From an uncultured Oscillospiraceae bacterium (GTDB lineage Bacteria; Bacillota; Clostridia; Oscillospirales; Oscillospiraceae): DNA of 64,000 nt. Positions 13,425-42,200 of this stretch are shown one piece after another. Below the pieces are notes generated by a model, which was not told the DNA's origin, searched no databases, and saw only the letters and a list, made by a program, of their open reading frames with translations. The position numbers were made by a program, and so were the translations under genes. The stretch spans positions 16,595-80,594 of the forward strand of contig CANRNF010000003.1 of NCBI GenBank assembly GCA_947631865.1, given 5' to 3'. Numbering within the stretch: the stretch's first letter is position 1; each line of letters begins with the position of its first letter.

Positions 13425-14201
13425 ATGAAGCGGAGCGCGGGATACTTTATGGCGCTGGCCCTGACGGCGGCGCTCATCCTGGGCGCGGCCACGCCGGCGC
13501 TGGCGGCGGAGAATTTTTCCGACGAGATGAAATTCGACGACGGGGCCGATATCAGCCCCGCTGACGGCGCGGACAGCGTGGAGCGGGCGGGGGACCACGA
13601 GGACAGCCCCTACTTCCGCCACCCGGATTTTTATAACATGACCTCCACCGACAGTCTGACCATCCTGACGAACTTCAAGACCATACAGCAGTCCAGCGAG
13701 TGGAGCTGCGGCGTGGCCTGCGTGCTGATGACGCTGGAGTGGTACGGCCTGCGGGGGGACTACGACGAGGAGAGCCTGGCTCAGCTGCGGCCCCAGGGGA
13801 TGGAGCCCGTGGCTACCACCATGAGCCAGATGGTGGGCCTTTTTGATTCAGTAGGCGGCTTTGATTGCTACTCCGCCATCGACGCGGGGGAGGACGCGGC
13901 GGATATCTTCACTTTTGATTACATCCAGGAGACCCTGGCGAACGGCGACCCCATCATCATCGGCTGGAACGACTGGGGCGCCCACTGGCAGATCATCATC
14001 GGCTACGACGACATGGGCACCGAGGTGACCCAGGACGACGTGATCATCGTGGCCGACCCCTATGACACCACCGACCATGACCAGGACGGCTACGGCATCT
14101 ATCCCGCCGAGCGGTTCCTGTATAACTTTACATTCTACGATTACTTTGACGAGGGCGAGCTGAACGACATGTGCTTCCTCGTCGCCAGACCCGCGGCCTG
14201 A
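13425..14201 (+). CDS. Secreted papain-fold, C39-like cysteine peptidase
   Basis: Signal peptide MKRSAGYFMALALTAALILGAATPALA. The order Q..SSEWSCGVACVLM ... GAHWQIIIGYDD ... ADPYD matches the Gln/Cys/His/Asp layout of C39-type peptidases. SD AAGGAG lies 7 nt upstream of ATG 13425. Confidence 0.6.
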   Translation: MKRSAGYFMALALTAALILGAATPALAAENFSDEMKFDDGADISPADGADSVERAGDHEDSPYFRHPDFYNMTSTDSLTILTNFKTIQQSSEWSCGVACVLMTLEWYGLRGDYDEESLAQLRPQGMEPVATTMSQMVGLFDSVGGFDCYSAIDAGEDAADIFTFDYIQETLANGDPIIIGWNDWGAHWQIIIGYDDMGTEVTQDDVIIVADPYDTTDHDQDGYGIYPAERFLYNFTFYDYFDEGELNDMCFLVARPAA

Positions 14202-14258: not shown

Positions 14259-17222
14259 ATGATGAAAAGGAACATTTCCAAGGTACTGAGCGCGCTGCTG
14301 CTGGCGGCGCTGCTTGTCAGCGTATGTCCCTTGGCGGGACTGGCGGCGGAGCCCGCGCCCGCGGCTACGGCAGAGCCGGAGGCCACGGCGGGACCCGAGG
14401 CCACGGATGAGCCTGAGGAGACAGCGGAACCTGAGGCCACGGACGGACCCGAAGCTACGGATGAGCCGGAGGCCACGGATGAGCCCGAGGAGACGGCAGA
14501 ACCGGAGGTCACGGACGAACCCGAATCCACGGATGGACCCGAAGCTACAGATGAGCCCGAGGCCACGGATGAGCCCGAGGTCACAGACGAACCTGAAGCC
14601 ACGGATGAGCCGGAACCCGCCGCGGCCGGTGATCCCGCGGTGCGGATCACGGCGGGCGGCGAGAGCCGGGAGTATGCCTCCATCGACGAGGCGTGGGCGG
14701 CGGCCGTCCAGGCCGGAACGGCCACGGTGACCCTTCTGGCGGATGTGACGGCCCAGGATGTACTTACCGTCCCGGCGGGCGCCTCCATCACCCTTGCCGG
14801 CGGGGAAAACACGCTGACGACGGCCTGTATCCGTGTGGACGGCGGCGCGCTGACGGTGGCCAGCGGCACGGTCCAGGATGCGGGCGACGGCTCCACCGAC
14901 AAAATGGGCGCGATCAATATCCAGGCCGGCCGCCTCACGGTGAACGGCGGCACGATGCGCGGGCTCAATGCCGGCGTCTATTGCTATGGCGGTGAGACGA
15001 CCGTCAACGGCGGCGTGATCTGCGGTGAAAACGGCGGTCTCGCCGTCACGGACGCGGACAGCCTCACGGTGAACGGCGGCGACATCTCCGGCGGTTTCGC
15101 CGGCATCGCCACTACGGGCGATAACAGACCTACTATCAACGGCGGCAGCATCAGCGGCAAGGGCGGGAGCGGCGTGAGCATGGGCTTCGGGGTCATTGCC
15201 TATAGCGGCTTGGTGCTCACCGGCGGCGAGATCAGCGGCGGCGACGCCGGCGTCCTGAGCATGGGCGATACGACGGTCACGGGCGGCAGCGTCACCGGTA
15301 CGGATGGCTTCGGCCTGCTGATAGGGGAGGAGGGCTCGGCGTCTCTGTCCGGCGGCACATACGCCGGCGTGAGCGGCGCCGTGAGCTGCGGCGGCTCCGT
15401 GCTGGGCGAGGACTTCCAGTCGGACCTGACGGTGAATGACCTGCTGGCCGATGGGTACGGCTGGTACGGCGCGGACGGCGCGCGTCTGACCCCGGCGGCG
15501 GACGAGAAGGCCCTGGAAGGGCCTGTGACGGTGCGCCCCCTGCCCGTGACGCCGGTGCTGAAGGTGGCGGGGGAGAACGTGCTTTTGTCCTCCGACCCCA
15601 CGGATATCGATCATGAATATGACGCGCCTCTTACGGACGGGGCGCTGATCGAGGGCGGCGCGGGCCGCATCGTGGTCCCGGCGGAATATGTGGTACAGTT
15701 CCCCGGCGAGGGCGTGGAGGCCACCGAACGCTACAGGTACGACAACCGCTATGAGCCGGACACGCTCATCTACCACCGGTACACCTTTGAGATCACCGAC
15801 CCCACGCTGACGGAGGTCACCGTGACTGTGTCCCCCAACCCAGACCCGCCCATGTGGACGAAGGTCATCTCCCATACATACGCCGATTTCTCCTGGAGCG
15901 TGACCGACTGCGCCAACAATAGGCACACCTACAACCACGCCGACGACGAGAGCACGATCTACGCGGCGGAGGACGCGGGCGGCGTGACCCTGAACCTGAG
16001 CAAGACGGAGGGCGCGGAGCCCCTGATGAAGATAGGCACAGCGACAGACATCGGCGGCGGCAAGTATACCCTTTACAGCGAGAACGGCGTGATCGAGTTC
16101 ACGCTGGCGCCCGGCAGCATCCGGGTCAACGTCACCGGCGAGACGGAGGGGCTTATCCGGGCCTCCGAATACGTGATGGACAGATACGGCGAGAACTACT
16201 TCCGGGTATATGTCAAGCCGGGCTACACCGTGGTCCCTGCGGATGAGAATACCCAGGTGACCGCGGGCTATACCAGCGAGAACGACGACGGATCGGATCG
16301 CCTCCACTACCATGTGAACGCGGACGCGGCGGCGGAAAAGGGCCTTGACAGCGTCACGGTGCGCCTTGAGAAGATCACCTCTGCCACCCTCTCTGTCAAT
16401 GAGCCGGACGTTCTGCTGGCGGCGGACCCCAACGGCAGCGGCAAAAGCCCCATCCTCACCGACGGGGACGTCATCCCGCCGGAGGGCGGGTGGCTGCTCA
16501 CCAGGTCGGACTGGTGGTTCAGCGGCGACAACGACGAGTATGCCTATGATTGGCGGGACGCGGCCTACGGTGAGCCCGGCAGCGAGATATACGATTGGAC
16601 CTATATCTATCCCCTGAAAAACGGCGTGGTGAACGTCACGATGGAATCGGTCGACGAACCGGCCCATTGGGCGGAAGTGACCGTTGATAACCCCGGCCTC
16701 AGGGACCTTTACATGCACGCTTATACCGGCGGTCAGGGAGCGCAGTTCAATTCCGATACGTATCATGCGTCGATGATCGTGTCGTACTATTTGTATATCG
16801 AAAACACAGATGGCTCGCTCCGTAAAGCCGCCGATATCACCGATATGGTTGGTATCCAGAGTGTAGAGGAACACTCCGACTATCTCATGCTGTACGTGGA
16901 CCCGGCGGCGGAGAAGATATCCTTCACCGTGAAGGCTCCCGCGGGCACTATCACACCCATACCGGGACCCACGGCGACGGCTGCCCCGACCGCGACGGCA
17001 GCACCCACGGCGACGGTTGCGCCCACGGCGACGGCAGCGCCCACGGCGACGGCAGCACCCACCACGGCGCCCGCCGCCACGGCGGCGCCCACCACGGCCC
17101 CCGGGGCAACCAGCCCCGCGACGGGAGATGAGACGGCATTTATCCCCTGGCTGCTGGCGCTTCTCGGCTGCGGCGCCGCCCTCGCGGTGGTGACGGCCTG
17201 CCGGCGGCGGGAGAGAAGATAA
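14259..17222 (+). CDS. Cell-wall-anchored surface protein with acidic EPEATD repeats, parallel beta-helix-like Gly-rich repeats and a sortase-type sorting signal
   Basis: 987 aa with a signal peptide. It has periodic NGG-x-I-x-GG repeats. The C-terminus is SPATG + hydrophobic segment + RRRERR, as in (S/P)PxTG sorting signals. Confidence 0.7.
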   Translation: MMKRNISKVLSALLLAALLVSVCPLAGLAAEPAPAATAEPEATAGPEATDEPEETAEPEATDGPEATDEPEATDEPEETAEPEVTDEPESTDGPEATDEPEATDEPEVTDEPEATDEPEPAAAGDPAVRITAGGESREYASIDEAWAAAVQAGTATVTLLADVTAQDVLTVPAGASITLAGGENTLTTACIRVDGGALTVASGTVQDAGDGSTDKMGAINIQAGRLTVNGGTMRGLNAGVYCYGGETTVNGGVICGENGGLAVTDADSLTVNGGDISGGFAGIATTGDNRPTINGGSISGKGGSGVSMGFGVIAYSGLVLTGGEISGGDAGVLSMGDTTVTGGSVTGTDGFGLLIGEEGSASLSGGTYAGVSGAVSCGGSVLGEDFQSDLTVNDLLADGYGWYGADGARLTPAADEKALEGPVTVRPLPVTPVLKVAGENVLLSSDPTDIDHEYDAPLTDGALIEGGAGRIVVPAEYVVQFPGEGVEATERYRYDNRYEPDTLIYHRYTFEITDPTLTEVTVTVSPNPDPPMWTKVISHTYADFSWSVTDCANNRHTYNHADDESTIYAAEDAGGVTLNLSKTEGAEPLMKIGTATDIGGGKYTLYSENGVIEFTLAPGSIRVNVTGETEGLIRASEYVMDRYGENYFRVYVKPGYTVVPADENTQVTAGYTSENDDGSDRLHYHVNADAAAEKGLDSVTVRLEKITSATLSVNEPDVLLAADPNGSGKSPILTDGDVIPPEGGWLLTRSDWWFSGDNDEYAYDWRDAAYGEPGSEIYDWTYIYPLKNGVVNVTMESVDEPAHWAEVTVDNPGLRDLYMHAYTGGQGAQFNSDTYHASMIVSYYLYIENTDGSLRKAADITDMVGIQSVEEHSDYLMLYVDPAAEKISFTVKAPAGTITPIPGPTATAAPTATAAPTATVAPTATAAPTATAAPTTAPAATAAPTTAPGATSPATGDETAFIPWLLALLGCGAALAVVTACRRRERR
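14349..14618 (+). repeat. In-frame 18-nt tandem repeats encoding (E/G)PE(A/E/V/S)T(D/A) x ~15
   Basis: Direct reading of repeated gagcc[c/g]gaggccacggat units. Confidence 0.85.
16968..17100 (+). repeat. In-frame 18-nt tandem repeats encoding PTATAA linker
   Basis: cccacggcgacggc[a/t]gc[a/g/c] units repeated about 5 times, followed by PTTAP variants. Confidence 0.8.
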
Positions 17223-17248
17223 ACAGATGGTTGAAAAGGAGAAAAGAC

Positions 17249-17413
17249 ATGAACGATAAAGAGAACAAAAAGACCCCGGAGGAACTGACCGACGAGGCGG
17301 TGGACACCGTCGCGGGCGGCGCGCTCGGCCTCGTCACCCCGCAGACACTGACCCAGGAGGAGATCGACGCCCTGCTGGCGGGGCAGAAAGAGGACAGCCA
17401 GAAGAAGCGGTAA
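17249..17413 (+). CDS. A12: short-GG-leader precursor, Cys-free 30-aa core
   Basis: MNDKENKKTPEELTDEAVDTVAGG|ALGLVTPQTLTQEEIDALLAGQKEDSQKKR. It lies immediately upstream of the giant Sel1 gene. Confidence 0.72.
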   Translation: MNDKENKKTPEELTDEAVDTVAGGALGLVTPQTLTQEEIDALLAGQKEDSQKKR

Positions 17414-17462
17414 ACACATATCCCGCCCCATGCCGGGCGGACAGCGAAAGGGAGGTACATTT

Positions 17463-20400
17463 ATGAGCATCAAAAAGACGTTGGCGCTGCTTTTGGCGGC
17501 GGTCATGCTGCTGGCAGTGTGCGCGGGCTGCGGAAAGACGCCCGAGCAGATGGTGGACGAGGCGGCGAAGGCCCTGGCAGAGGGCGACGGCGAGAAGGCC
17601 GTGAAGCTGCTGACAAAGGCCGGGGACAAGGACTACGCTCCCGCCGACGCGGTGCTGGGCGGCCTGTATGTTACCGGCGAGGGCGTGGAACAGGACTACG
17701 CCAAGGCCATGGAGCTGTACCAGTCGGCCGCGGACGGCGGCGATGCCGCGGGTCTGACCGGCATGGGCGATCTGTACGCCAATGGCATGGGCGTGGAAGT
17801 GGACAAGGCGAAGGCCTTCGAACTGTACTCCCAAGCGGCGGAGCAGGGCGACATAGCCGGCCAGACGGCCGTGGGCCGGTTCTATGACTACGGCTACGAC
17901 GTGGTGGATGTGGATTATACCGAGGCGGCCCGGCTGTACGAGCTGAGCGCGGAGGCGGGCGACCCCATGGCCGCGCTGTCGCTGGCCTGGCTTTATGACC
18001 AGGGCCAGGGCATGGAAGAGGACCACGACAAGGCCGGGGAGTACTTTGCCCAGGCCCTGGCGGGCGTCACGGAGAGCGGCGGCCCGTACGAGGGCGAGCC
18101 CTATATCCTGGGCCAGCTCTACTTCGGCGGCTACAGCGTGGAGCAGGACTACGACAAGGCGCTTGAATACTTTACCACCGCGATGGAGCAGGGCTCCTTC
18201 GAGGCGGAGCGGATGCTGGCTATGATGTACGTGTACGGCTACGGCGTGGACGTGGACATGGATAAGGCCGTCGAGCTTCTCACCGACGCCGCGTCCCACG
18301 GGGTGTATGATACCGCTTACGTGCTGGGCATGAACTGCCTGGGCCTGGTGAACGAGACCGGCGAGGGGTTTGAGCCTGACTACGCCGAGGCGGTCAAGTG
18401 GCTGGAAATGGACGCGGCGCTGGACCATCCGGCGGCGGAAACCTGGCTGGGCGACATGTATATGTACGCCAACGGCGTGGAGATGGACAAGGCAAAGGCC
18501 CTGGAGTACTACACCCAGGCGGCGGAACAAGATGACGCCTATGGCCAGTACATGATGGGCAACATCTATGACGCCGGCTACGGCGTGGTGGACGTGGACG
18601 AGGCCACGGCCGTGGAGTGGTATGAAAAGGCCGCGGCGCAGAATGAGGCGGAGGCCATGTATCAACTGGCCGCTCATTACGAGGAAGGCCTGGGCGTGGA
18701 GAAGGACGAGGCCAAGGCCCAGGAGCTCTTTGACAGCCTTGCCGCCCAGCTCACCGCGAAAGACGAGAGCGAGCTGTACTCCGCCGAAAAGCGGGTCCTG
18801 GGCTATCTGTACGGGGAGGGCCAGGGCGTAGAGGAGGACGACGTCCGTGCCGCGGAGCTTATGACCGCCGCGGCGGAGAAGGGCGAGGCGCGGGCCATGT
18901 ACGACCTGGGCTGGCTGTATGAAGAAGGCGAGGGCGTGGAACAGGACTACGCCAAGGCCATGGAATGGTACGGCAAGGCGGCGGAGCACGGCGTGCGCAA
19001 GGCGATGTACTCTCTGGGCCTGATGTACCTCTACGGCGAAGGCGTGGAGGTGGACTACGATCAGGCGATGCAGTGGTTTGAAAAGTCAGCGGAGCAGGAG
19101 GACTCCTACGCGCTGTACGCCGTGGGCTGGATGTACGGTCAGGGCTACGGTGTGGAGAAGGACCCGGACAAGACCGTGGAGTACTATACCCAGGCGGCGG
19201 AGCTGGATAACCCCCAGGCGCTGGTGGCTTTGGGCCGCATGTACTACTCCGGCGATGATGTCGAACAGGACTATGACAAGGCCAGGGCGCTCTTTGAGCA
19301 GGGCGTAGAGCTGGACGATCCCTACAGCGAGGTGTATCTGGCCGATATGTACATGTACGGCGAAGGCGTGGAGGAGGATTATACCCAGGCGCGAGAGCTG
19401 TACGAGCAAATCCTGACCCATGAGGACGCCGATGACGACCTTATAGGCTACGCGGCGGAGAACGACGGCTGGTTCTATGAGTACGGCATGGGCGTGGAGA
19501 TGGATAAGGCCAAGGCCTTTGAACTTTACACCCAGTCCGCGGAGCTGGGCTATGTGGACGGCCAGACCTCTCTGGGCCGGTTCTACGACTATGGCTACGG
19601 CGTGGTGGACAGAGACTATGCCCAGGCCGCGGAGTGGTACCAGAAGGCCGCGGACCAGGGCGACGCCGAGGCGATGCTGTATCTGGCCTGGCTCTATGAG
19701 CAGGGCGATGGCGTTGAGCAGGACGAGGCCAAGGCCGAGGAACTCTATACCCAGGCCTTCGAGGCTGCCTCGGAGGACGAGGACTACAGCTACAACCAGC
19801 TGGTGCTGGGCTACCTTTATCTGGACGGCACCGGTGTGGAGCAGGACTATGCCAAGGCCCTGGAATACCTCACCGCGGCGGCGGAGGACGATATCTTCGA
19901 GGCCGGGAGTGAGCTGGGCATGATGTACCTCAATGGTCTCGGCACGGAAAAGGACGAGGCCAAGGGCCTGGAGCTGCTGGAAGACGCGGCGGCTCACGGC
20001 GTGCCTGTGGCATACAACTACCTGGGCCACGCCTATGCGGACGGCACCGGCGTGGAGCTTGACTATGAAAAGGCCCGGGAGCTCCTGGAACAGGGCGAGG
20101 CCCTGGGGGACCCCTACGTGTGCTACTATCTGGCCGACATGTACATGTACGGTCTGGGCGGAGATGAGGACTATGCCAAGGCGCGGGAGTACTATGAGCA
20201 GGTCCTGGCACTCCCCGAGCAGGACGACGACGATCTGGGCTACGCCGCGGAGAGCGACGGCTGGTTCTACGAGTACGGCATGGGCGTGGAGATGGATAAG
20301 GCAAAGGCCTTTGAGCTTTACACCCAGTCCGCGGAGCTGGGCTATGTGGACGGCCAGACCTCTCTGGGCCGGTTCTACGACTACGGCTACGGCGTAGTGG

Positions 20401-22781
20401 ATAAGGATTACGCCAAGGCCGCGGAGTGGTACCAGAAGGCCGCGGACCAGGGCAACGCCGAGGCGATGCTGTATCTGGCCTGGCTCTATGACCAGGGCGA
20501 GGGCGTTGAGCAGGATCAGGCCAAGGCCGAAGAGCTCTACGCTCAGGCTTTCGAGGCCGCCTCGGAGGATGAGGACTACAGCTACAACCAGCTGGTGCTG
20601 GGCTATCTCTATTATGACGGCGTCGGCGGCGTGGAGCAGGACTATGCCAAGGCCCTGGAATACTTCACCGCGGCGGCGGAGGACGATATCTTCGAGGCCG
20701 AGGATATGGCGGGCATGATGTACGTCATGGGTTTCGGCACGGAAAAGGACGAGGCCAAGGGTATAGAGATGCTGGAGGACGCGGCGGCCCATGGCGTGCC
20801 CGAGGCCTACGATTACCTGGGCCAGTTCTACGAACTGGGCTACGGCGTGGAGCAGGACAAGGCCAAGGCGAAGGAGTATTACGAGAAGGGCGCGGCCCTG
20901 GGCGATATATGGTCCCCGGTGGCCCTGGGTGACATGTATAACTACGCCGACGGGGTGGAGCTGGACAAGGCCAAGGCCTTTGAGTACTACGCCCAGGCCG
21001 CAGAGCTGGGCGAGCCGGACGCCGTTTACATGGTGGGCGAGTTCTATGACTGCGGCTACGGCGCGGTGGACATAGACGAGGCCAAGGCCGTGGAGCAGTA
21101 CGAAAAGGCGGCGGCGCTGGGCCAGCCGGACGCCATCTATTTTCTGGGCTGCCACTATCAGAACGGCGACGGCGTGGAAAAGGACGAGGCCAAGGCCCAG
21201 GAGCTCTTTGAAAGCCTGTACGCCCAGCTCACCGCGAAAGACGAGAGCGAGCTTTACTCCGACGAAAAGCGGGTCCTGGGCTATCTGTACGAGAATGGCC
21301 TGGGCGTGGAGGAGGATTACGCCAAAGCCGTGGCGCTCTTCCAGCAGGCCATAGACGAGGGGTCTTATAAGGCCCTGTACGATCTGGGCTGGTGCAGCGT
21401 CTACGGCATGGGCATGGATGAGGACAAGGCCGGGGCCGTGGAGCTCTTTGCTCAGGCGGCGGAACGCGGCGACTGCATGGCGATGGCCTCCCTGGGCGTC
21501 GCGTATATTAACGGCGACGGCGTGGAGCAGGACTACGACAAGGCTCTGGAGTGGCTTGAAAAGTCCGCGGAGCAGGACTATTACTATGCGTATTACCTCC
21601 TGGGCTGTATGTATGAATACGGCGACGGGGTGGACCAGGACTACGACAAGGCTCTGGAGTACTTCACCAAGTCGGCAGACCAGAATTACGCCGGCGCGCT
21701 GGCCATGCTGGGCTATAAGTATGACGCGGGCGAGGGCGTGGAGGCAGACAGCGCCAAGGCCGTGGAGTATTACACCAGGGGTATGGACTGGGGCGACGCC
21801 ATGTCCGCCCAAAATCTGGCGGTCATGTACGGCGCCGGCGACGGCGTGGAGGTAGACCTGGACAAGAGCTTCGAGCTTTATAACAAGGCCCTGGAGCTGA
21901 ACGGGGAGTACGACCTTGCCATGGAGGCCCTGGGAGAGTATTACATGACCGGCAAGGGCTCTGTGGAGGTGGACTACGCTCAGGCGATGGAGTGGTTTGA
22001 AAAGGCCGCCCAGTACGACAACGTGGAGGCCATCTACTACATAGGCGTCCTGTACGCCAACGGCCTGGGCGTGGAGACGGACGAGGCGAAGGCCCAGGAG
22101 TACTATAAAGACGTGGCCGCCATCCTCACCCAGAAGGAGGAAGAGGGCACGATGGACTCCGCCGACAAGCGCATCCTTGGCTTCCTCTACCGGGACGGCA
22201 AGGGCCTGGAACAGGACGAGGTCCGGGGCGCTGAGCTTCTGACCGCCGCCTCGGAGGAGGGCAACTTCCAGGCGACCTACTCCCTGGGCAACTGCTATCT
22301 GGACGGCCAGGGCGTGGAGCAGGATCCCGCCAAGGCGGTGGAGCTCCTTTCGCTGGCCGCGGCCCACGGCGAGACCGGCGCCGCCGGCAAGCTGGGATAC
22401 ATATACTTCTACGGCGAAGGCGTGGACCAGGACTATGAGGAAGCGTTCCGTTGGCTGCAGATGGGCGCGGATATGGGCGACGCCTACTGCCAGCTGCTCC
22501 TGGGGGGTATGTATGTCACCGGCATCGGCGTGGAACAGGACGGCGAAAAGGGCGTCGCCCTGCTGGAGGAGTCCGTGGACGAAAGGGCCGATGGCTGGTA
22601 TCTCCTGGGCGCGGTCTATGAGACCGGCGAGGGCGTGGAGCCGGATATGGATAAGGCCCTGGAATACTACGCCAAGGCCGCGGAGGCCGGGGACGCGGAC
22701 GCGGCCCAGCGGCTGGAGGAGCTGACGGCGGGACCGGAAACGGAGGAGCCCGCCGCCAGCGAGCCTCCCGCTGAGGATTAA
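17463..22781 (+). CDS. Giant Sel1-repeat (SLR/TPR-like) lipoprotein, ~1772 aa
   Basis: Lipobox LAVCAGCG. Dozens of ~36-aa units follow the pattern A..WY.KAAEQGd..A...LG.MY..G.GVEQDY.KA. ATG 17463 follows SD GGGAGG. Confidence 0.88.
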   Translation: MSIKKTLALLLAAVMLLAVCAGCGKTPEQMVDEAAKALAEGDGEKAVKLLTKAGDKDYAPADAVLGGLYVTGEGVEQDYAKAMELYQSAADGGDAAGLTGMGDLYANGMGVEVDKAKAFELYSQAAEQGDIAGQTAVGRFYDYGYDVVDVDYTEAARLYELSAEAGDPMAALSLAWLYDQGQGMEEDHDKAGEYFAQALAGVTESGGPYEGEPYILGQLYFGGYSVEQDYDKALEYFTTAMEQGSFEAERMLAMMYVYGYGVDVDMDKAVELLTDAASHGVYDTAYVLGMNCLGLVNETGEGFEPDYAEAVKWLEMDAALDHPAAETWLGDMYMYANGVEMDKAKALEYYTQAAEQDDAYGQYMMGNIYDAGYGVVDVDEATAVEWYEKAAAQNEAEAMYQLAAHYEEGLGVEKDEAKAQELFDSLAAQLTAKDESELYSAEKRVLGYLYGEGQGVEEDDVRAAELMTAAAEKGEARAMYDLGWLYEEGEGVEQDYAKAMEWYGKAAEHGVRKAMYSLGLMYLYGEGVEVDYDQAMQWFEKSAEQEDSYALYAVGWMYGQGYGVEKDPDKTVEYYTQAAELDNPQALVALGRMYYSGDDVEQDYDKARALFEQGVELDDPYSEVYLADMYMYGEGVEEDYTQARELYEQILTHEDADDDLIGYAAENDGWFYEYGMGVEMDKAKAFELYTQSAELGYVDGQTSLGRFYDYGYGVVDRDYAQAAEWYQKAADQGDAEAMLYLAWLYEQGDGVEQDEAKAEELYTQAFEAASEDEDYSYNQLVLGYLYLDGTGVEQDYAKALEYLTAAAEDDIFEAGSELGMMYLNGLGTEKDEAKGLELLEDAAAHGVPVAYNYLGHAYADGTGVELDYEKARELLEQGEALGDPYVCYYLADMYMYGLGGDEDYAKAREYYEQVLALPEQDDDDLGYAAESDGWFYEYGMGVEMDKAKAFELYTQSAELGYVDGQTSLGRFYDYGYGVVDKDYAKAAEWYQKAADQGNAEAMLYLAWLYDQGEGVEQDQAKAEELYAQAFEAASEDEDYSYNQLVLGYLYYDGVGGVEQDYAKALEYFTAAAEDDIFEAEDMAGMMYVMGFGTEKDEAKGIEMLEDAAAHGVPEAYDYLGQFYELGYGVEQDKAKAKEYYEKGAALGDIWSPVALGDMYNYADGVELDKAKAFEYYAQAAELGEPDAVYMVGEFYDCGYGAVDIDEAKAVEQYEKAAALGQPDAIYFLGCHYQNGDGVEKDEAKAQELFESLYAQLTAKDESELYSDEKRVLGYLYENGLGVEEDYAKAVALFQQAIDEGSYKALYDLGWCSVYGMGMDEDKAGAVELFAQAAERGDCMAMASLGVAYINGDGVEQDYDKALEWLEKSAEQDYYYAYYLLGCMYEYGDGVDQDYDKALEYFTKSADQNYAGALAMLGYKYDAGEGVEADSAKAVEYYTRGMDWGDAMSAQNLAVMYGAGDGVEVDLDKSFELYNKALELNGEYDLAMEALGEYYMTGKGSVEVDYAQAMEWFEKAAQYDNVEAIYYIGVLYANGLGVETDEAKAQEYYKDVAAILTQKEEEGTMDSADKRILGFLYRDGKGLEQDEVRGAELLTAASEEGNFQATYSLGNCYLDGQGVEQDPAKAVELLSLAAAHGETGAAGKLGYIYFYGEGVDQDYEEAFRWLQMGADMGDAYCQLLLGGMYVTGIGVEQDGEKGVALLEESVDERADGWYLLGAVYETGEGVEPDMDKALEYYAKAAEAGDADAAQRLEELTAGPETEEPAASEPPAED
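19446..21029 (+). repeat. Internal tandem duplication (2 x 792 bp, 264 aa) within the Sel1 gene
   Basis: GYAAE(N/S)DGWFYEYGMGVEMDKAKAFELYTQSAELGYVDGQTSLGRFYDYGYGVVD... recurs at 19446 and 20238 with near identity. Looser copies occur elsewhere in the gene. Confidence 0.8.
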
Positions 22782-22800
22782 CACTTATTTCCGGGGCCGC

Positions 22801-22837
22801 CGGCCCTTTGGGCTTTCTGAAACGTATAAAGAGACAG
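22801..22837 (+). promoter_or_regulatory. Conserved bipartite promoter-like element P2
   Basis: CGGCCCTTT-N13-CGTATAAAGAGACAG, 37 nt upstream of the A13 ATG. Confidence 0.55.
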
Positions 22838-22859
22838 AAGACCGGAAAGGAGAACCGCT

Positions 22860-23120
22860 ATGAATAGCAGCAAAAACGAAAAGAATTTTGAAGAGCTGTC
22901 CGACGAAGCCCTTGACAAGGTGGCCGGAGGCTGGGACGAGGACGAGGTATTGGAGGCTGGGCCATGGGTAGCGAAGGCTCCCCTGACCGATGATGAAAGA
23001 TACGGCGATCACGAGTGCGGCAACTGCCACAGAAGGCATATCAACGCCTCGAACGGCATGTTGAGAGACGACAACGTATGGTTTTGCAACGGCTGCTGGT
23101 ACACGATCAGCGGTTGGTAA
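22860..23120 (+). CDS. A13: short-GG-leader precursor, zinc-ribbon-like core (class i)
   Basis: Leader MNSSKNEKNFEELSDEALDKVAGG; core has ECGNC...FCNGC. Confidence 0.8.
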   Translation: MNSSKNEKNFEELSDEALDKVAGGWDEDEVLEAGPWVAKAPLTDDERYGDHECGNCHRRHINASNGMLRDDNVWFCNGCWYTISGW

Positions 23121-23138
23121 AGATGAAGGGAGGCAGAG

Positions 23139-23405
23139 ATGATAGACAACAAGGACAAAAGGGAGCTGTCCGACGAGGCCATGGATGAGGTGGTGGGCGG
23201 TTCGATCCGACTCCCCACTTCTGTGACGGCCGCTTATTTGAGCGATCCGTCTCAACCGCATACCGTGTGCGACAGATGCCACGGTACATTTGCCGCGGGC
23301 GTGGTCACAGAGCACGCGGTGAGCTCCGGCTATCTTTGGCTCTGCCCGGCTTGCGTCCAGGCTTACAAGGACGCCGGTCTGTACTTTCACAAAGCCGATA
23401 TATAA
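23139..23405 (+). CDS. A14: short-GG-leader precursor, zinc-ribbon-like core (class i)
   Basis: Leader MIDNKDKRELSDEAMDEVVGG; core has VCDRC...LCPAC. Confidence 0.78.
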   Translation: MIDNKDKRELSDEAMDEVVGGSIRLPTSVTAAYLSDPSQPHTVCDRCHGTFAAGVVTEHAVSSGYLWLCPACVQAYKDAGLYFHKADI

Positions 23406-23433
23406 GAAGGAGCAGCGGTAAAAGGAGAAGGCT

Positions 23434-23700
23434 ATGAACGACAACGAGAACAGGAAGAGCATGGAAGAGCTGGCCGACGAGGCGCTGGACGCCGTGTCCG
23501 GGGGAGCGGTATCAAAAGAGACTCTAGATGAGGAGAAATGGTATTGCTTTTTTCAGGGATTTCAGTCGCTGAATAATTGCTGCAATTGTCAGTCAGACTG
23601 GGATTTCACCTGTCAGCTCTTCGATATGGATCCAGAGGCGAGATACAATATGTTCGGCGGGAACCAGTTCGCGAAGTGCCCGTATTTCAGGAGCATGTAA
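23434..23700 (+). CDS. A15: short-GG-leader precursor, class ii Cys core
   Basis: Leader MNDNENRKSMEELADEALDAVSGG; core has NNCCNC...TC...AKCPYFRSM. Confidence 0.8.
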   Translation: MNDNENRKSMEELADEALDAVSGGAVSKETLDEEKWYCFFQGFQSLNNCCNCQSDWDFTCQLFDMDPEARYNMFGGNQFAKCPYFRSM

Positions 23701-23723
23701 GGCCTGGACCAAAGGGGGGGCCT

Positions 23724-23756
23724 GTGAACGACAGCGGGAACAAAAGAGCAGCGTAG
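23724..23756 (+). pseudogene. Truncated leader remnant (VNDSGNKRAA-stop)
   Basis: gtgaacgacagcgggaacaaaaga matches the 5' end of A19 (atgaacgacagcggaaacaaaagg) but stops after 10 codons. Confidence 0.5.
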
Positions 23757-23782
23757 AAACAAATCAAAAAGGAGCAGACACC

Positions 23783-25045
23783 ATGAAGCGGAGCACGAGA
23801 TACTGGCTTGCGCTGGCCCTGACGGCGGCGCTGATCCTGGGCGCGGCGATGCCTGCGCTGGCGGCGGAGGAGGCGGCCACAGCAGAGGAAGCCTTCGATA
23901 TGGCCGTGGCGTATATGTACGGCGACGGGGTGGAGCAGGACTCTGAAAAGGCCTTCCAGCTCTTCAGCCAGGCGGCGGAGCAGGACTATCCCGACGCCTA
24001 CGAGTACCTGGCCTATCTGTACTATGCCGGCGAGGGCGTGGAGCAGGATTACGCCGAGGCGATGGAGTGGTACAAAAAGGCCGCGGAGAATGGAAACGCC
24101 AGAGCGGCCTTCGACGTGGGCGCGATGTACGACTTCGGCGACGGCGTGGATCAGGATCATGCCATGGCGAAGGAGTGGTACGAAAAGGCCTCGGAGATGG
24201 GCGACGACGACGCGCTCAACAACCTGGGCTGCCTGTACGAATACGGCGACGGCGTGGAGCGGGACTACGCCAAGGCGGCGGAGTATTACACCCAGGCCTC
24301 GGAGATGGGCGACGGCATGGCCTCGGCGAACCTGAGCTGGCTGTATGCCTGCGGTCTGGGCGTGGAGCGGGACGAGGCAAAGGCCTTCGAGCTGGCCGGC
24401 AAGGCGGCGGAGGCAGGCGAGAGCGGTGGCATGTATTTGATGGGCCAGTTCTATGACTACGGCTACGGCGTGGTGGAGAAAGACCACGCCCAGGCGGCCC
24501 AGTGGTATGAAAAGGCCATCGAGGCGGACGGCGAGAACGCGGCGGCCTTGATGGAGCTGGGCACTCTTGTCAAAGACGGCGAGGGCACGGAAAAGGACGA
24601 GGCGCGGGCCGAAGAGCTCTTCCAGGAGGCCGCGGAGATCCTTCTGGCGTGGGAGGCCGAGGATGCGCTGGACATCTCCGAAAAGCGGACCCTGGGCCAG
24701 CTGTACTATACGGGCATGGGCGTGGAACAGGACTATGAAAAGGCCGCGGAACTGCTGGCCGACGCCGCTGGAGACAACGACCGGGACGCCCTGTATGTTC
24801 TGGGCGCCTGCTATCTCTTCGGCCAGGGCGTGGAGCAGGATATGGCCAAGGCCATGGAGCTGATCACCGGCGCGGCGGAACAGGGGCTACCCGTTGCCAT
24901 GGCGACGCTGGGCACGATGTATGAGCAGGGCTTGGGCGTGGACGCGGACCCGGATATGGCCCGGCAATTCTATGAAGAGGCCGCCTCCCTGGGCATGGAC
25001 ACCTCCAGGGAGCTGGAGCATCTGGCGGAGACGCCCGCCGCCTGA
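23783..25045 (+). CDS. Secreted Sel1-repeat protein (420 aa)
   Basis: Signal peptide ...AAMPALAAEE. It has about 10 Sel1 units of the same type as the giant paralog. Confidence 0.88.
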   Translation: MKRSTRYWLALALTAALILGAAMPALAAEEAATAEEAFDMAVAYMYGDGVEQDSEKAFQLFSQAAEQDYPDAYEYLAYLYYAGEGVEQDYAEAMEWYKKAAENGNARAAFDVGAMYDFGDGVDQDHAMAKEWYEKASEMGDDDALNNLGCLYEYGDGVERDYAKAAEYYTQASEMGDGMASANLSWLYACGLGVERDEAKAFELAGKAAEAGESGGMYLMGQFYDYGYGVVEKDHAQAAQWYEKAIEADGENAAALMELGTLVKDGEGTEKDEARAEELFQEAAEILLAWEAEDALDISEKRTLGQLYYTGMGVEQDYEKAAELLADAAGDNDRDALYVLGACYLFGQGVEQDMAKAMELITGAAEQGLPVAMATLGTMYEQGLGVDADPDMARQFYEEAASLGMDTSRELEHLAETPAA

Positions 25046-25061
25046 GAAATTTAGAAGCGTT

Positions 25062-25098
25062 CGGCCCTTTCGGCGGACTGGAACGTATATAGATACAC
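25062..25098 (+). promoter_or_regulatory. Conserved bipartite promoter-like element P3
   Basis: CGGCCCTTT-N13-CGTATATAGATACAC, 37 nt upstream of the A16 ATG. Confidence 0.5.
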
Positions 25099-25120
25099 AC
25101 CGGCGAGCGGAGGTATCATC

Positions 25121-25363
25121 ATGAACAACAACGAAAACAGAAAGGCTCCCCAGGAGCTGACAGACGAGATGCTGGACGCGGTGGCCGGAGGCGGGCGCCA
25201 GGCCGATAGCTCTGACGCGTATTTTTGGCAGCAGTTTCGGAACAACAACGACTGCCTGCATTGCAAGAACAGCTGCCCGTATATTTTCATGTCGCCCGAG
25301 GAGAGGAGCATTACCTTTGGCAGAGACCCCAACGCGAAGTGCCAGTATTACAAGAGCATGTGA
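25121..25363 (+). CDS. A16: short-GG-leader precursor, class ii Cys core
   Basis: Leader MNNNENRKAPQELTDEMLDAVAGG; core has NDCLHC..SCPY...AKCQYYKSM. Confidence 0.8.
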   Translation: MNNNENRKAPQELTDEMLDAVAGGGRQADSSDAYFWQQFRNNNDCLHCKNSCPYIFMSPEERSITFGRDPNAKCQYYKSM

Positions 25364-25383
25364 GACCGAAGGGAGAGCAAACT

Positions 25384-25629
25384 ATGGAAAACAGCGAGAA
25401 CAAAAAAGCTCCGGAAGAGCTGACGGACGAGATGCTGGACAAGATCGTCGGCGGAGCCGATACACCAGATAAGGATGCCATTCTGGCGTGGGCCATGCAG
25501 TTTGGTATGAACAACTGCTTGCGATGCAAGGGCATGACGACCAGCCAGTGCAGTTACTATCATGGGCCGGTGGACGTCTACCTGATGGGGTTGAAGGCCT
25601 CCGACACCTGCCCCGGATTCATATCCTGA
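25384..25629 (+). CDS. A17: short-GG-leader precursor, class ii Cys core
   Basis: Leader MENSENKKAPEELTDEMLDKIVGG; core has NNCLRC...QC...DTCPGFIS. The internal ATG 25384 is chosen by leader alignment. Confidence 0.78.
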   Translation: MENSENKKAPEELTDEMLDKIVGGADTPDKDAILAWAMQFGMNNCLRCKGMTTSQCSYYHGPVDVYLMGLKASDTCPGFIS

Positions 25630-25645
25630 TGAAGGAGGCGCCGTC

Positions 25646-25915: not shown

Positions 25916-25936
25916 CGGCCGTGCCCGCCAAAGAAA

Positions 25937-25958
25937 GCTGGACAATGTCGCCGGGGGA
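25937..25958 (+). pseudogene. Orphan fragment of a leader 3' end (..LDNVAGG)
   Basis: gctggacaatgtcgccggggga duplicates the A18 leader segment ctggacaatgtcgcgggaggc. It has no start codon or SD. Confidence 0.4.
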
Positions 25959-25993
25959 ATGATGGATATTAGTGATCTTAAGGAGGAACATCC

Positions 25994-26233: not shown

Positions 26234-26245
26234 TCCGGACAACGA

Positions 26246-26279
26246 GCAAGGGGCTCCCCCACGCGGGGGAGCCCCTTGC
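26246..26279. terminator. Bidirectional terminator hairpin between N3 and fic-like gene
   Basis: A perfect 15-bp stem GCAAGGGGCTCCCCC/GGGGGAGCCCCTTGC with loop ACGC. Confidence 0.75.
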
Positions 26280-39527: not shown

Positions 39528-40004
39528 ATGGACAACGGACTGTTTCGTCAAAAGAGCCTGGACAAGGTGTCCAGCCCAGAGCAGATGAACGACTATATCC
39601 GGGTGACCAGTCCCGGGGTGTGGCTGATCCTGGCCGCGGTGATCGCGATCCTGGCCGGACTGCTCATCTGGTCCGTGCTGGGCCGGCTGGAGACCACGGT
39701 GCCGGCGGCGGCGGTGGCCGGGCCGGACGGAGCGGCGGTGTGCTACATCGATGAGGGAGACCTCTCCTCCGTGCACGCGGGCCAGACGGTGCATATCGCA
39801 GGGATCGATTATGCTCTGTCCGAGGTGGCGGCCAAGCCTGTGGTCGTAGACGAGAGTTTCGACGCCTACGCCCTGCACGTGGGCGGCCTGGAGGCCGGCC
39901 AGTGGGTGTACCCTGCGGAGCTGGACGGGACGCTGGACGAGGGGATCTACGAGGCGAAGGTCGTGGTGGACAGCGTTTCTCCCATCTCGTTCCTGCTGAA
40001 TTGA
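39528..40004 (+). CDS. Short HlyD-like/NHLM-type bacteriocin secretion accessory protein
   Basis: The N-terminus FRQKSLDKVSSPEQMNDYIRVTSPGVWLIL plus a single TM resembles the start of NHLM-system HlyD homologues. It is only 158 aa. Confidence 0.55.
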   Translation: MDNGLFRQKSLDKVSSPEQMNDYIRVTSPGVWLILAAVIAILAGLLIWSVLGRLETTVPAAAVAGPDGAAVCYIDEGDLSSVHAGQTVHIAGIDYALSEVAAKPVVVDESFDAYALHVGGLEAGQWVYPAELDGTLDEGIYEAKVVVDSVSPISFLLN

Positions 40005-40011
40005 GGCGCCC

Positions 40012-42186
40012 ATGAAGAAGCAAGAGATCAAAAAGCCCGTTACCAAGGGCGTGGCCAAAGTGCCGGTGGTCATGCAGATGGAGGCGCTGGAGTGCGGCGC
40101 CGCCAGCCTGACCATGGTGCTGGCCTATTATGAGAAATGGATACCGCTGGAGCAGGTGCGCGCCGACTGCGGCGTGAGCCGGGACGGCTCCAACGCCAAA
40201 AACGTGCTGAAGGCCGCGAGGAGCTACGGCCTCACGGCGAAGGCATACCGCTTTGAGCCGGATGACCTGCGGGAGCGGGGAACGTTCCCCTGCATCATCC
40301 ACTGGAACTTCAACCACTTCGTGGTGCTGGACGGGTTCAAGGGCGGCAAAGCCATATTGAACGACCCGGCCCGGGGCGTGACCCCGGTGAGCATGGAGAC
40401 CTTTGACGAGTCCTTCACCGGCATCTGCATGATGTTCGAGCCGGGGGAGGGGTTCCAGCCCGGCGGCAGCCCCAAGAGCATGCTGGGCTACGCGAAAAAG
40501 CGGCTCACCGGCGCCGGGGCGGCGCTGGTGTTCGTGACGCTGACCACGCTCATCAGCTCCCTTTTCGGCGTGATCAGCCCCGCCTTCTCCCGGATATTTA
40601 TGGACCGTCTGCTCACGAGGCAGAACCCGGAGTGGCTGTGGCCGTTTTTGGCGGCCCTGGCCGGCGTGAGCATTTTGCAGCTCGTCGTGGCATGGGTCCA
40701 GGCGGTTTGGTCCCTTCGCATCACAGGCAAGCTGGCTTCCGTGGGTTCGGCAACGTTCCTGTGGAAGGTGCTGCACATGCCCATGGAGTTTTTCTCCCAG
40801 CGCATGGCCGGCGACATCCAGCAGCGGCAGACCACCAACGCCAACATCGCCCAGGAACTGGTGAATACCATAGGGCCGCTGGTGCTGAACGCCATCATGA
40901 TGGTGTTCTACCTGGTGGTCATGCTCCGGTATTCCTGGATATTGACCCTGGTAGGACTGGCCTCCGTGGTCATCAACCTGGGCGTGAGCCGCCTTATATC
41001 CAAAAAGCGTGTGAACATCATGCGCGTGCAGATGCGCGACGCGGGCAAGCTCGCCTCCTCCACCATGGCGGCCATCGAAATGATCGAGACCATCAAGGCC
41101 GCCGGCGCGGAGAACGGCTACTTCGAGCGCTGGGCGGGCTACCAGGCCAGCGTGAACACCCAGCAGATGCGCTTTACCAAGACAGACGCGTATCTCGGCC
41201 TTATCCCCTCCATCGTCAGCGTCATCAGCGACATGGCCATCCTGTTCCTGGGCGTGCTGTTCGTCATGCAGGGCAGCTTCACCATCGGTATGGTCATGGC
41301 CTTCCAGGGCTTCCTCATGAGCTTCACCGCCCCGGCCACTACCCTCATCGGCGCGGGCCAGACCATCCAGGAGATGCGTACGGAGATGGAGCGCGTGGAG
41401 GACGTGATGGAGTACCCCGAGGACAGCAATATGGTCGAGGGGGAGGAGCAGGAAAGCTACGACAAGCTCTCCGGCGCTCTGGAGATGAAGCACGTCACCT
41501 TCGGCTACTCCAAGCTGGCGGAACCCCTCATCGAGGACTTCAATCTGAGCCTGAAGCCGGGCAGCCGGGTGGCCTTCGTGGGAGGCTCCGGCTGCGGCAA
41601 GAGCACCCTTTCCAAGCTCATATCGGGCCTTTACCAGCCCTGGAGCGGGGAGATCCTCTTCGACGGCAAGCCCATCCGGGAGATCGACCGGAGCGTGTTC
41701 ACCGGCTCACTCGCGGTGGTGGATCAGGACGTCATCCTCTTTGAGGACACCATTGCTGAAAATATCAAGATGTGGGATAAGTCCATCGAGGACTTCGAGA
41801 TGATCATGGCGGCCCGGGACGCTGGTATCCACAGCGACATCGTCCAGCGTGAGGGCGGCTACAACCACAAGCTGACAGAGGGCGGCCGTGACTTCTCCGG
41901 CGGCCAGCGCCAGCGCATGGAGATCGCCCGTGTCCTGGCCCAGGACCCCACCATCATCATCCTGGACGAGGCCACCTCCGCCCTGGACGCCAAGACGGAG
42001 TACGAAGTGGTCAAGTCCATCAAGGACCGGGGCGTCACCTGTATCGTGGTGGCCCACCGGCTCTCCACCATCCGGGACTGCGACGAGATCATCGTCCTGG
42101 ACCAGGGCAAAGTGGTGGAGCGGGGGACCCACGACGAGCTATACGCCAAGGGCGGATATTACACCCGCCTGGTGTCCAATGACTGA
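40012..42186 (+). CDS. Peptidase-containing ABC transporter (PCAT): C39 peptidase + permease + ATPase
   Basis: The C39 domain shows QMEALECGAASL, NHFVVL and NDP. It has 6 TM segments, Walker A GGSGCGKST, signature FSGGQRQR and Walker B IILDEATSALD. Confidence 0.9.
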   Translation: MKKQEIKKPVTKGVAKVPVVMQMEALECGAASLTMVLAYYEKWIPLEQVRADCGVSRDGSNAKNVLKAARSYGLTAKAYRFEPDDLRERGTFPCIIHWNFNHFVVLDGFKGGKAILNDPARGVTPVSMETFDESFTGICMMFEPGEGFQPGGSPKSMLGYAKKRLTGAGAALVFVTLTTLISSLFGVISPAFSRIFMDRLLTRQNPEWLWPFLAALAGVSILQLVVAWVQAVWSLRITGKLASVGSATFLWKVLHMPMEFFSQRMAGDIQQRQTTNANIAQELVNTIGPLVLNAIMMVFYLVVMLRYSWILTLVGLASVVINLGVSRLISKKRVNIMRVQMRDAGKLASSTMAAIEMIETIKAAGAENGYFERWAGYQASVNTQQMRFTKTDAYLGLIPSIVSVISDMAILFLGVLFVMQGSFTIGMVMAFQGFLMSFTAPATTLIGAGQTIQEMRTEMERVEDVMEYPEDSNMVEGEEQESYDKLSGALEMKHVTFGYSKLAEPLIEDFNLSLKPGSRVAFVGGSGCGKSTLSKLISGLYQPWSGEILFDGKPIREIDRSVFTGSLAVVDQDVILFEDTIAENIKMWDKSIEDFEMIMAARDAGIHSDIVQREGGYNHKLTEGGRDFSGGQRQRMEIARVLAQDPTIIILDEATSALDAKTEYEVVKSIKDRGVTCIVVAHRLSTIRDCDEIIVLDQGKVVERGTHDELYAKGGYYTRLVSND

Positions 42187-42200
42187 GGGGGTGCGCTGCA

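Follow-up and report, generated by a model that had tools for sequence, protein, structure and literature searches.

Solenoids of Sel1-like repeats (SLR) or tetratricopeptide repeats (TPR) serve as binding scaffolds, and several envelope SLR proteins, ExoR among them, act as inhibitory binders. Here we describe two secreted Sel1-repeat proteins, a giant of 1772 amino acids (aa) and a paralog of 420 aa, which are encoded among small peptide genes in a 64,000-nucleotide (nt) stretch from an uncultured Oscillospiraceae bacterium (assembly GCA_947631865.1, contig CANRNF010000003.1, positions 16,595 to 80,594 of the forward strand; G+C content about 62%). We call this whole stretch the window and number it from its first letter. 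The best explanation offered by the sequence is that the Sel1 proteins are dedicated parts of a clade-specific island that exports peptides with double-glycine (GG) leaders through a peptidase-containing ATP-binding cassette (ABC) transporter (PCAT), and that the giant is paired with one of these peptides, here named A12. The solved SLR proteins EsiB/c5321 (4bwr), O. formigenes Sel1 (6ok3/6ork), LceB (8sxq), LpnE (6deh) and HcpC (1ouv) have the same PF08238 repeats and the same predicted fold, and are likewise exported; HcpC has peptide-binding sites resembling those of TPR proteins, as cited in a passage of PMC10868440. The window departs from them in the 45 repeats that the giant carries in a single chain, which is far more, in its monoderm Firmicutes host, and in the PCAT/GG-peptide island, the conserved small-peptide partner gene and the leader-like N-terminal segment described below.

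Four groups of described systems come closest to this arrangement. Sel1E, an SLR immunity protein of K. pneumoniae, neutralises VgrG4, an effector of a type VI secretion system (T6SS), probably by binding (PMC7108748). Sel1E and P. aeruginosa PA5087 (5jkp) are, as here, SLR proteins encoded beside genes for exported products, but those systems have one immunity protein per toxin, whereas two solenoids accompany about 24 small GG-leader peptides in the window. Pfam scans of 27 window open reading frames (ORFs) found no effector, VgrG, Rhs or phospholipase domain, and since no effector is present the locus cannot be placed with T6SS-type SLR immunity. LanI-type immunity lipoproteins such as NisI and SpaI are surface-anchored products of bacteriocin loci that bind the exported peptide and thereby shield the producer. 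They have an unrelated fold and no sequence likeness to the window proteins, for which Pfam gives only Sel1 (and TPR_27) and modeling an all-alpha solenoid, and the lipobox found here is non-canonical and not conserved. Receptors of the RRNPP family (PlcR-PapR, NprR-NprX) are cytoplasmic TPR proteins with helix-turn-helix or phosphatase output, and their peptides are exported by Sec or PptAB and re-imported. The likeness lies in a TPR-like repeat gene that adjoins a gene for a small secreted peptide with a C-terminal conserved part; the difference is that the repeat protein of the window is exported and consists only of Sel1 repeats, and that the peptide has a GG leader. Because both Sel1 proteins are exported and lack an output domain, neither fits the description of an RRNPP receptor. 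ExoR, AlgK, MotX and MerG are also exported Sel1-repeat proteins, with ExoR controlling a sensor kinase and AlgK acting as a lipoprotein scaffold. Both window proteins fell below the cutoffs of all four NCBIfam equivalog models (270.7 against 350, 256.5 against 700, 216.5 against 330 and, for ExoR, 113.8 against 450), and as scored these matches are repeat-level similarity only. PADLOC defence models produced nothing beyond spurious matches of 45 residues at the N-termini of ATPase models, with no TIR, caspase or kinase fusion. Within the searchable literature, a general survey of polymorphic toxins was all that we found to treat Sel1 proteins together with double-glycine peptides or PCATs.

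The two Sel1 genes, A12 and the elements within or between them are:
17249..17413, + strand: A12, a 54-aa, Cys-free double-glycine-leader peptide with the mature part ALGLVTPQTLTQEEIDALLAGQKEDSQKKR
17422..17441, + strand: GC-rich hairpin that follows the A12 stop codon and precedes the Sel1 ribosome-binding site, without a T-run on the + strand
17463..22781, + strand: giant Sel1-repeat protein, 1772 aa, about 45 repeats, pI 4.05, 21% Asp+Glu
17463..17531, + strand: signal peptide of the giant, MSIKKTLALLLAAVMLLAVCAGC, ending in a non-canonical lipobox at Cys23
17535..17588, + strand: GG-leader-like segment KTPEQMVDEAAKALAEGD, directly after the putatively lipidated Cys
19263..21017, + strand: 7-unit Sel1 block (264/265 aa, 792/795 nt) in about 2.2 tandem copies, 82% identical in nucleotides overall, with a 360-nt core at 88-97%
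23783..25045, + strand: 420-aa Sel1-repeat protein with 10-11 repeats and a signal peptidase I signal peptide (ALA↓AEE) over residues 1-27

The leader of A12, MNDKENKKTPEELTDEAVDTVAGG, is of the same family as that of the neighboring cargo and ends in GG, and the genome encodes a C39-ABC transporter, the PCAT at 40012-42186; at the level of sequence A12 is thus predicted PCAT cargo. L34, E38, L43 and Q46 are invariant across the family alignment, QKKR is conserved at the C-terminus, and the mature part follows the pattern x5-8-PQTLTx[EK]E[LI]xxLL[AG]GQxE[ED]xQ[KR]KR-stop. When seven variants were pooled, the ratio of nonsynonymous to synonymous substitution rates (dN/dS) was 0.44 in the leader, 1.38 in the six residues after GG and 0.37 in the last 24 residues; by these ratios, the C-terminal core is under purifying selection and the six residues after GG vary freely. 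The mature peptide is hydrophilic, with a net charge of about -1, and AlphaFold2 predicts a single short helix at residues 36-44 with low confidence elsewhere. The family is rare: a profile search of 5.8 billion proteins returned about 21 A12-like members, and a filter-free search of 1.84 billion cluster representatives only about 5 at full length. In Joint Genome Institute (JGI) metagenomes, 498 matches to the A12-alignment pattern yielded none confirmed by tblastn, and a stricter leader DNA pattern found 2 contigs, such that the A12/array leader family is essentially absent from that collection.

A gene for a Sel1 protein with a signal peptide lies 16-60 nt downstream of A12 in all seven distinct variants (7/7) whose context was read. 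In the window the distance is 49 nt, which agrees with a first-pass annotation of this DNA that had placed the giant gene after a Cys-free GG peptide; the start coordinate given there, 17249, is that of the A12 gene and not of the Sel1 gene. The Sel1 protein that follows A12 has 46 units in the window and in L135/L136, 26 in L094, 15 in L055/L131, in L129 and in L137/L138, and 12 in L134 (L numbers denote related loci). The loci L129/L131/L134 are compact clusters with the order HlyD-like protein, PCAT, ABC transporter, peptides, a 432-aa protein, peptides, C39_2 peptidase, A12, Sel1 and two peptides. Judged by this synteny, the large Sel1 protein and A12 are a conserved two-gene module. The hairpin between the two genes may be an attenuator or an mRNA-stability element; its layout is typical of read-through attenuators located 3' of precursor-peptide genes.

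Some further sequences bear on the A12 family. P0266, a marginal A12 match, was rejected as a homolog, since it is an orphan GG peptide whose core differs and which lies in a housekeeping context. We also rejected the idea that the A12 core is a decayed second leader, as the leader hidden Markov model (HMM) scored it no better than shuffles, with 2/21 cores above the 99th percentile, and the resemblance is at pattern level only. Three 81-aa relatives from outside the window, P0243, P0245 and P0248, have two complete GG leaders in tandem before the A12 core, and P0247 and P0261 have LLGGQ in place of LLAGQ, a potential second GG site that would leave the 9-residue tail QQEEGQKKR. The unrelated 1000-aa protein P0270, also outside the window, contains about 20 tandem ATLGQDEIDALLGGGK-like units that match the A12 core profile, and this unit presumably recalls the N-terminal LSQAEIDALL peptide of FliM.

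Translation of the giant (ORF 17430/17463-22781) most likely begins at the ATG at 17463, with a GGGAGG ribosome-binding site 7 nt upstream. Pfam Sel1 (PF08238) matched 38 stretches of the protein with 934.6 bits and an E-value of 1.2e-292 (cutoff 30.7), and about 45 repeats were counted by regular expression together with double spacings of 72-78 residues, against 46 by an HMM built from the window's own repeats. A secreted Sel1-repeat protein of about 1770 aa had been predicted, and its size, signal peptide and repeat family are all as described. The N-terminus is a hydrophobic Sec-type signal peptide whose end, LLAVCAGC followed by GK, matches a relaxed lipobox pattern; the strict pattern [LVI][ASTVI][GAS]C fails because a Cys occupies position -3 (VCAG↓C). 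The same site reads LCAG↓C in the orthologs L092 and L094, and L[CS]AGFGK, without a +1 Cys, in the orthologs of 12-16 units. Across the relatives of the giant, export is conserved and the putative lipidation is not, and in this genome the protein is probably anchored at the membrane through its Cys. The earlier label of lipoprotein is therefore uncertain: Cys23 does end the signal peptide, but the lipobox is non-canonical and the Cys is replaced in the 12-16-unit relatives.

A second secreted Sel1 protein of 420 aa, interleaved with the peptide genes, had likewise been predicted correctly. Pfam Sel1 matched it in 10 stretches (261.2 bits, E-value 6.6e-80), our own HMM counted 10 units, and the protein is very acidic (pI 4.05, 21% Asp+Glu), with a hydrophobic Sec-type signal peptide like that of the giant. 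The AlphaFold2 model has a mean predicted local distance difference test (pLDDT) of 93.8 and a predicted template modeling score (pTM) of 0.84, and shows an all-alpha solenoid with 22 helices after the signal peptide, that is, the right-handed alpha/alpha solenoid of helix pairs that defines the SLR fold. The best Foldseek matches of this model in the PDB were all SLR proteins, with EsiB (4bwr), O. formigenes Sel1 (6ok3) and LceB (8sxq) at the top and LpnE and HcpC among the others (E-values 1e-11 to 3.5e-21, identity 27-34%). The 420-aa protein aligns with at least 4 different positions of the giant at 40-44% identity. A homolog search gave 1852 matches, all at or below 50% identity and generic in their repeats, many of them fused to TIR, caspase or kinase domains, and was of no help for orthology.

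To see how far Sel1 genes keep company with such arrays, we scanned one genome per GTDB species with a degenerate DNA pattern for the leader motif L[AT]DE[AMTV]LDx[VIM]xGG, which gave at least 117 blocks of 8 kb or less. Among the blocks listed, an HMM of the window's Sel1 repeats detected Sel1 units in 7/26 with two or more leader motifs and in 0/91 of the others (Fisher p = 1.3e-5, though the blocks are not independent and the positive ones are phylogenetically related); the 91 are mostly chance matches in unrelated high-GC genomes. Two of the seven positive blocks are atypical. L092 has no peptide gene, its two leader motifs fall within the Sel1 gene region, and one of them is the leader-like N-terminus of the Sel1 protein itself; L081 has only a 2-unit Sel1 protein without a signal peptide. 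The five solid cases and L092 come from at least 4 species-level Oscillospiraceae metagenome-assembled genomes, Lapin-001_bin25, Lapin-011_bin20, Lapin-022_bin60 and Lapin-023_bin99, of which Lapin-001_bin25 is the closest relative of the window among the matches listed (95-96% identical). Synteny of Sel1 genes with such arrays in other genomes, which the first-pass annotation had named as a check, is therefore present in at least 4 further species-level genomes of the family. Lapin-011 starts with the peptidase and continues with eight peptides, a 389-aa Sel1 protein, further peptides, the surface protein and a 22-unit Sel1 protein, and in Lapin-023 the peptidase gene is followed directly by a 46-unit Sel1 gene; because the same genes recur in differing orders, the set of components persists through rearrangements. 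As far as these blocks show, the link between Sel1 genes and arrays is real but limited to one clade, and synteny in at least 4 other genomes together with the tight pairing with A12 supports a functional link between the Sel1 proteins and the island.

The giant contains nested duplications as well as older copies, as had been proposed: at offsets of 264 and 826 aa, its best 100-aa windows reach 93% and 71% identity, respectively, with other offsets at 50-60%. The duplication at 19446-21029 had also been called a near-perfect doubling of 792 bp, which it is not, since 654 of 801 columns match (82%), only about 19440-19800 reaches 88-97%, the flanks are at 60-80%, and a 3-nt indel between the copies gives the spacing of 792/795. 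Synonymous divergence (dS) from one copy to the other amounts to 0.41, or 0.32 within the core, compared with 0.15 between the window and the relative L135, whose own 1772-aa giant is 94% identical, shares the duplication and aligns without a gap. The 264-aa duplication is thus not recent. Among three metagenome contigs that are 99-100% identical, two of which end inside the repeat, there was no change in copy number of the giant. With a copy dS of 0.3-0.4, no gap in L135 and no copy-number change across near-identical contigs, the suggestion that the repeat is still expanding finds no support for this gene. A different Sel1 gene, upstream of A12 in L137 (3587-5290, 567 aa) and L138 (1791-3710, 639 aa), differs between them by a 216-nt, two-unit indel, which hints at either a recent change in repeat number or an assembly collapse, as these contigs are 98-99% identical and have about 3x coverage. 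Short Sel1 proteins align best with the C-terminal 600 aa of the giant (about 1166-1772, 15 repeats) at 47-59% identity, and for this reason the giant seems to derive from a 15-unit ancestor that expanded in its N-terminal and central parts. The 46-unit proteins of the window and of L092 were rejected as collinear orthologs, because they share 48% identity in an alignment containing 302 gap columns and L092 lacks the 264-aa duplication. The flanking peptidase genes of these two loci are nevertheless 90% identical in DNA (L092 belongs to Lapin-023), which argues that the repeat arrays are remodeled between species and stable within them.

Between the window and L135, dN/dS of the giant is 0.20. 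The 420-aa gene has values of 0.14 against Lapin-001 and 0.45 against Lapin-011, the C39_2 peptidase 0.105 and a neighboring 987-aa surface protein 0.28. Judged by these ratios, both Sel1 genes are functional and constrained by purifying selection, and gene-wide dN/dS gave no arms-race signature in either.

The segment that follows the putatively lipidated Cys of the giant resembles the leaders of the peptides. Using a leader HMM built from the window's 17 leaders, with significance judged against 500 shuffles, we obtained 6.3 bits for the N-terminus of the giant (1/500 shuffles), 17.2 for L092 and 9.7 for L094 (0/500 each). The segment of L092 (Lapin-023), KTPEKMYDEAMEAIAGG↓D, has an intact GG (AIAGG↓D) and a C39_2 peptidase gene directly upstream; the segments lie at about 7072-7131 (- strand) in L092 and at about 2631-2690 in L094. 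All three large Sel1 proteins with a Cys-containing signal peptide have such a segment, whereas the leader HMM did not find it in Sel1 proteins without that Cys. Its DNA is collinear with leader DNA, and the presence of a GG-leader-like segment inside the three Cys-bearing large Sel1 proteins suggests that Sel1 genes exchanged sequence with peptide genes. The N-terminal 66 aa are also the best conserved part between the giants of the window and L092, at 67% identity compared with 48% overall. The segment may be a shedding site or a recombination scar. The 420-aa gene has a different kind of connection to its surroundings: the 87 nt at 13425-13511, in the C39_2 peptidase gene, and at 23783-23869, in the 420-aa gene, are about 88% identical in DNA; the likeness begins sharply at the ATG and stops as sharply at the ALA↓AE cleavage site, the flanks are unrelated, and it looks as though the two genes share a signal-peptide cassette.

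On these grounds we assign a probability of roughly 0.4 to the reading that both solenoids are exported binders of PCAT peptides from the same island, with A12 the cognate partner of the large one. We infer the binding, the identity of the ligands and the physiological outcome as follows. After Sec export the solenoid would stay at the outer face of the membrane and would bind short peptide segments, as other TPR/SLR proteins do. Its ligands would be peptides exported by the PCAT of the same island, with mature A12 as the first candidate, whose short conserved helix and invariant basic C-terminal tail (...GQKKR) would face a very acidic solenoid. An exported peptide captured and held at the surface of the producer would be sequestered, either for self-protection or for signal buffering, and duplications of blocks of 2-7 repeats would multiply the binding units.

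Several observations weigh against binding of this kind. The charge of mature A12 and the range of the cargo cores (-7 to +3) mean that only the KKR tail suits an acidic groove, and a general electrostatic match of acidic solenoids with basic cargo was ruled out on the same core charges. No A12 gene lies upstream of the 420-aa paralog or of the large orthologs in L092 and L009, so A12 cannot be the sole partner. Generic Sel1 homologs elsewhere are not found beside peptide arrays, as seen in the gene contexts of the two best matches to the 420-aa protein, and in the listed blocks of 8 kb or less, in which a more distant gene would be missed, no Sel1 gene accompanies the same-leader arrays of Agathobacter, Ruminococcus bromii, Anaerotignum, Lachnospiraceae and others. 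Groove binding is also not universal among SLR proteins, since the conserved surface of LceB is convex. A narrower form of the proposal, in which A12 and the exported solenoid make up an extracellular ligand-receptor or tag-dock pair as an outside-cell counterpart of RRNPP, the repeat number sets the amount of exported peptide kept at the cell surface, and the C39-like peptidase sheds the loaded solenoid at the GG-type segment, seems to us distinctly unlikely.

Other roles can be set against the same data. Immunity by sequestration, already proposed in the first-pass annotation, with the solenoids neutralizing diverse Cys-rich mini-proteins at the producer surface in the manner of LanI or of T6SS SLR immunity proteins and each module taking up one or a few peptides, has a precedent in Sel1E, and Pfam/NCBIfam scans revealed no other recognizable immunity gene in the island. 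Repeat units and leader-motif peptides, whose comparison had been proposed, do rise together in the three clusters counted, at 12 and 7 in L134, 15 and 10 in L129, and 56 and 19 in the window, although n=3, the clusters are not independent and the number of peptides per unit varies from about 0.3 to 0.7. Selection on the Sel1 genes is purifying rather than diversifying while the cargo cores are hypervariable, the mixed charges of those cores offer no simple electrostatic match, and the toxicity of the mini-proteins is only putative. The sole strictly co-inherited peptide, the hydrophilic A12, is moreover unlike a toxin or a membrane-active bacteriocin, and the arrays of other taxa do without a nearby Sel1 gene in the blocks listed; we regard immunity as unlikely. 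The same low standing falls to the proposal that the solenoids are independent SLR proteins that face the host or the environment, like EsiB, LpnE/LceB and O. formigenes Sel1, and share the island without molecular interaction. The closest solved structures are exactly such proteins, the source is a gut commensal lineage, and because the C39_2 peptidase also occurs without arrays, this part of the chromosome may simply collect genes for secreted proteins. Against such mere company stand the A12-Sel1 adjacency that survives rearrangements in every variant read, the leader-derived segment inside Sel1 genes, and the Sel1 gene within the compact PCAT cluster of L129/L134.

A role in regulation or proteolysis, in which the solenoid acts as an envelope regulator of the island's LytTR system, as the periplasmic SLR protein ExoR does on ExoS, or is a substrate or tether of the peptidase that is shed from its anchor, appears very unlikely. 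Genes at 6970-9089 code for a LytTR response regulator and a GHKL histidine kinase, the leader-like segment comes right after the anchor Cys in the best-conserved part of the giants, and L092 combines an intact GG with a peptidase gene directly upstream; against these stand the sub-cutoff ExoR score, the AEGD in place of GG at the site in the window, and the standalone peptidase orthologs in genomes without arrays. It is highly improbable, finally, that the giant is, as the first-pass annotation had also suggested, a multivalent scaffold which displays the exported mini-proteins on the cell surface by cohesin-dockerin logic. Such a scaffold would fit a large modular protein of 45 units, made of blocks that are 40-44% identical to the 420-aa paralog, with a putative membrane anchor and an adjacent gene for a 987-aa wall- or membrane-anchored surface protein. 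Pfam, however, found neither cohesin nor dockerin domains, the mature cargo cores have no shared motif that could be a common docking tag, the one element they share is a leader normally removed at export, and the 12-16-unit orthologs lack the anchor Cys.

PCATs with large double-glycine peptide arrays are common in gut Clostridia, and the locus offers a concrete accessory module for them, consisting of a small conserved peptide gene and then an exported Sel1 solenoid whose repeat number ranges from 12 to 46 between related species. The type of protein is familiar; the partnership of an A12-type GG peptide with an exported Sel1 solenoid in a PCAT island is conserved, has a narrow distribution and had no description in the literature searched. 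Should the solenoid bind exported peptides, it would represent a new type of handling protein for bacteriocins or other peptides, for immunity, retention or signaling, as well as a natural case in which repeat expansion tunes binding capacity. A true ligand-receptor pair would amount to a previously undescribed monoderm way to retain, buffer or release exported peptides. If the solenoids do not bind exported peptides, they would be ordinary secreted SLR proteins of a gut commensal.

The Sel1 genes belong to a co-directional gene train on the + strand (10133-26233, gaps below 90 nt), and their neighbors and the export genes are:
13425..14201, + strand: Sec-secreted papain-like peptidase, Peptidase_C39_2 (Pfam PF13529, E-value 7.5e-6)
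14259..17222, + strand: surface protein of 987 aa that combines a signal peptide, linkers rich in Pro/Thr/Glu and a transmembrane anchor at the C-terminus
22860-23120, 23139-23405 and 23434-23700, + strand: three GG-leader peptide genes with Cys-rich cores, between the Sel1 genes
25121-25363, 25384-25629, 25646-25915 and 25994-26233, + strand: four GG-leader peptide genes, the last with a Nif11-type leader
26263..26279, + strand: terminator-like hairpin just past the last peptide gene, the best-scoring on the + strand in 9000-26500
39528..44399, + strand: GG-peptide export machinery, comprising an HlyD-like protein (39528-40004), the PCAT (C39 peptidase and ABC, 40012-42186) and a second ABC protein (42201-44399)

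The train holds about 20 small genes whose leaders are either of a shared double-glycine type, MNDxENKKxxEELADEALDxVAGG, or long and Nif11-type (TIGR03798, 33.4 bits against a cutoff of 32.3), and whose diverse cores mostly contain 4-6 Cys. With A12 at 17249, the GG-leader peptide genes around the Sel1 genes thus start at 17249, 22860, 23139, 23434, 25121, 25384, 25646 and 25994, and the order in the train is C39_2 peptidase, 987-aa surface protein, A12, giant, three peptides, 420-aa Sel1 protein and four peptides. The 420-aa gene had been taken to close the second array, which the four peptide genes on its 3' side contradict; the hairpin at 26263-26279 is the probable end of the train. Three further GG peptide genes lie 3' of the export machinery, at 44478-45242. 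Because Sel1 and peptide genes are contiguous with the PCAT in L129/L134, a rearrangement seems to have separated the parts of the system in the lineage of the window.

In L129/L131/L134/L092 the gene immediately upstream of A12-Sel1, or of Sel1 itself, encodes the C39_2 peptidase. The protein has more than 1100 homologs, and its 70-77%-identical orthologs in other Clostridia (L121-L126) stand alone among housekeeping genes, with no Sel1 genes or GG arrays beside them in the contexts read; the peptidase was therefore ruled out as a synteny marker of the system. A sequence search gave no homolog of it in the PDB. The 987-aa surface protein is located between peptidase and A12 in this lineage only, with an ortholog in L135/L136/L009 and none in L129/L134/L092, and had no Pfam or NCBIfam match.

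Additional features were observed around the export machinery and the arrays. The 158-aa protein at 39528-40004, directly upstream of the PCAT, resembles a truncated accessory protein, as its match to the NHLP-type HlyD secretion protein model TIGR03794 is confined to model positions 1-47. Beside the PCAT pair, a 432-aa protein (45305-46603) without a Pfam or NCBIfam match has an HxxxDG-like motif, FHALTDGAG, reminiscent of condensation/acyltransferase domains, and occupies the same place, between peptide genes, in L129/L131/L134. Two M13 metallopeptidase paralogs (4682-6700 and 30096-32159, about 85% nucleotide identity) flank the two-component system, a sigma factor, the arrays and the Sel1 genes. 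The ORF at 12895-13413 has a GG leader (…ALDDDAMDRVAGG) and then 119 residues that run across the peptide gene 13203-13391 in another frame, and may be a frameshifted or pseudogenized array member. Upstream of the first array, the region 6970-10099 contains the LytTR response regulator and GHKL histidine kinase genes, a Cys-free GG peptide (9206-9388) and a sigma-70/ECF-like (extracytoplasmic function) factor (9626-10099), and is likely a pheromone-type regulatory module for the island.

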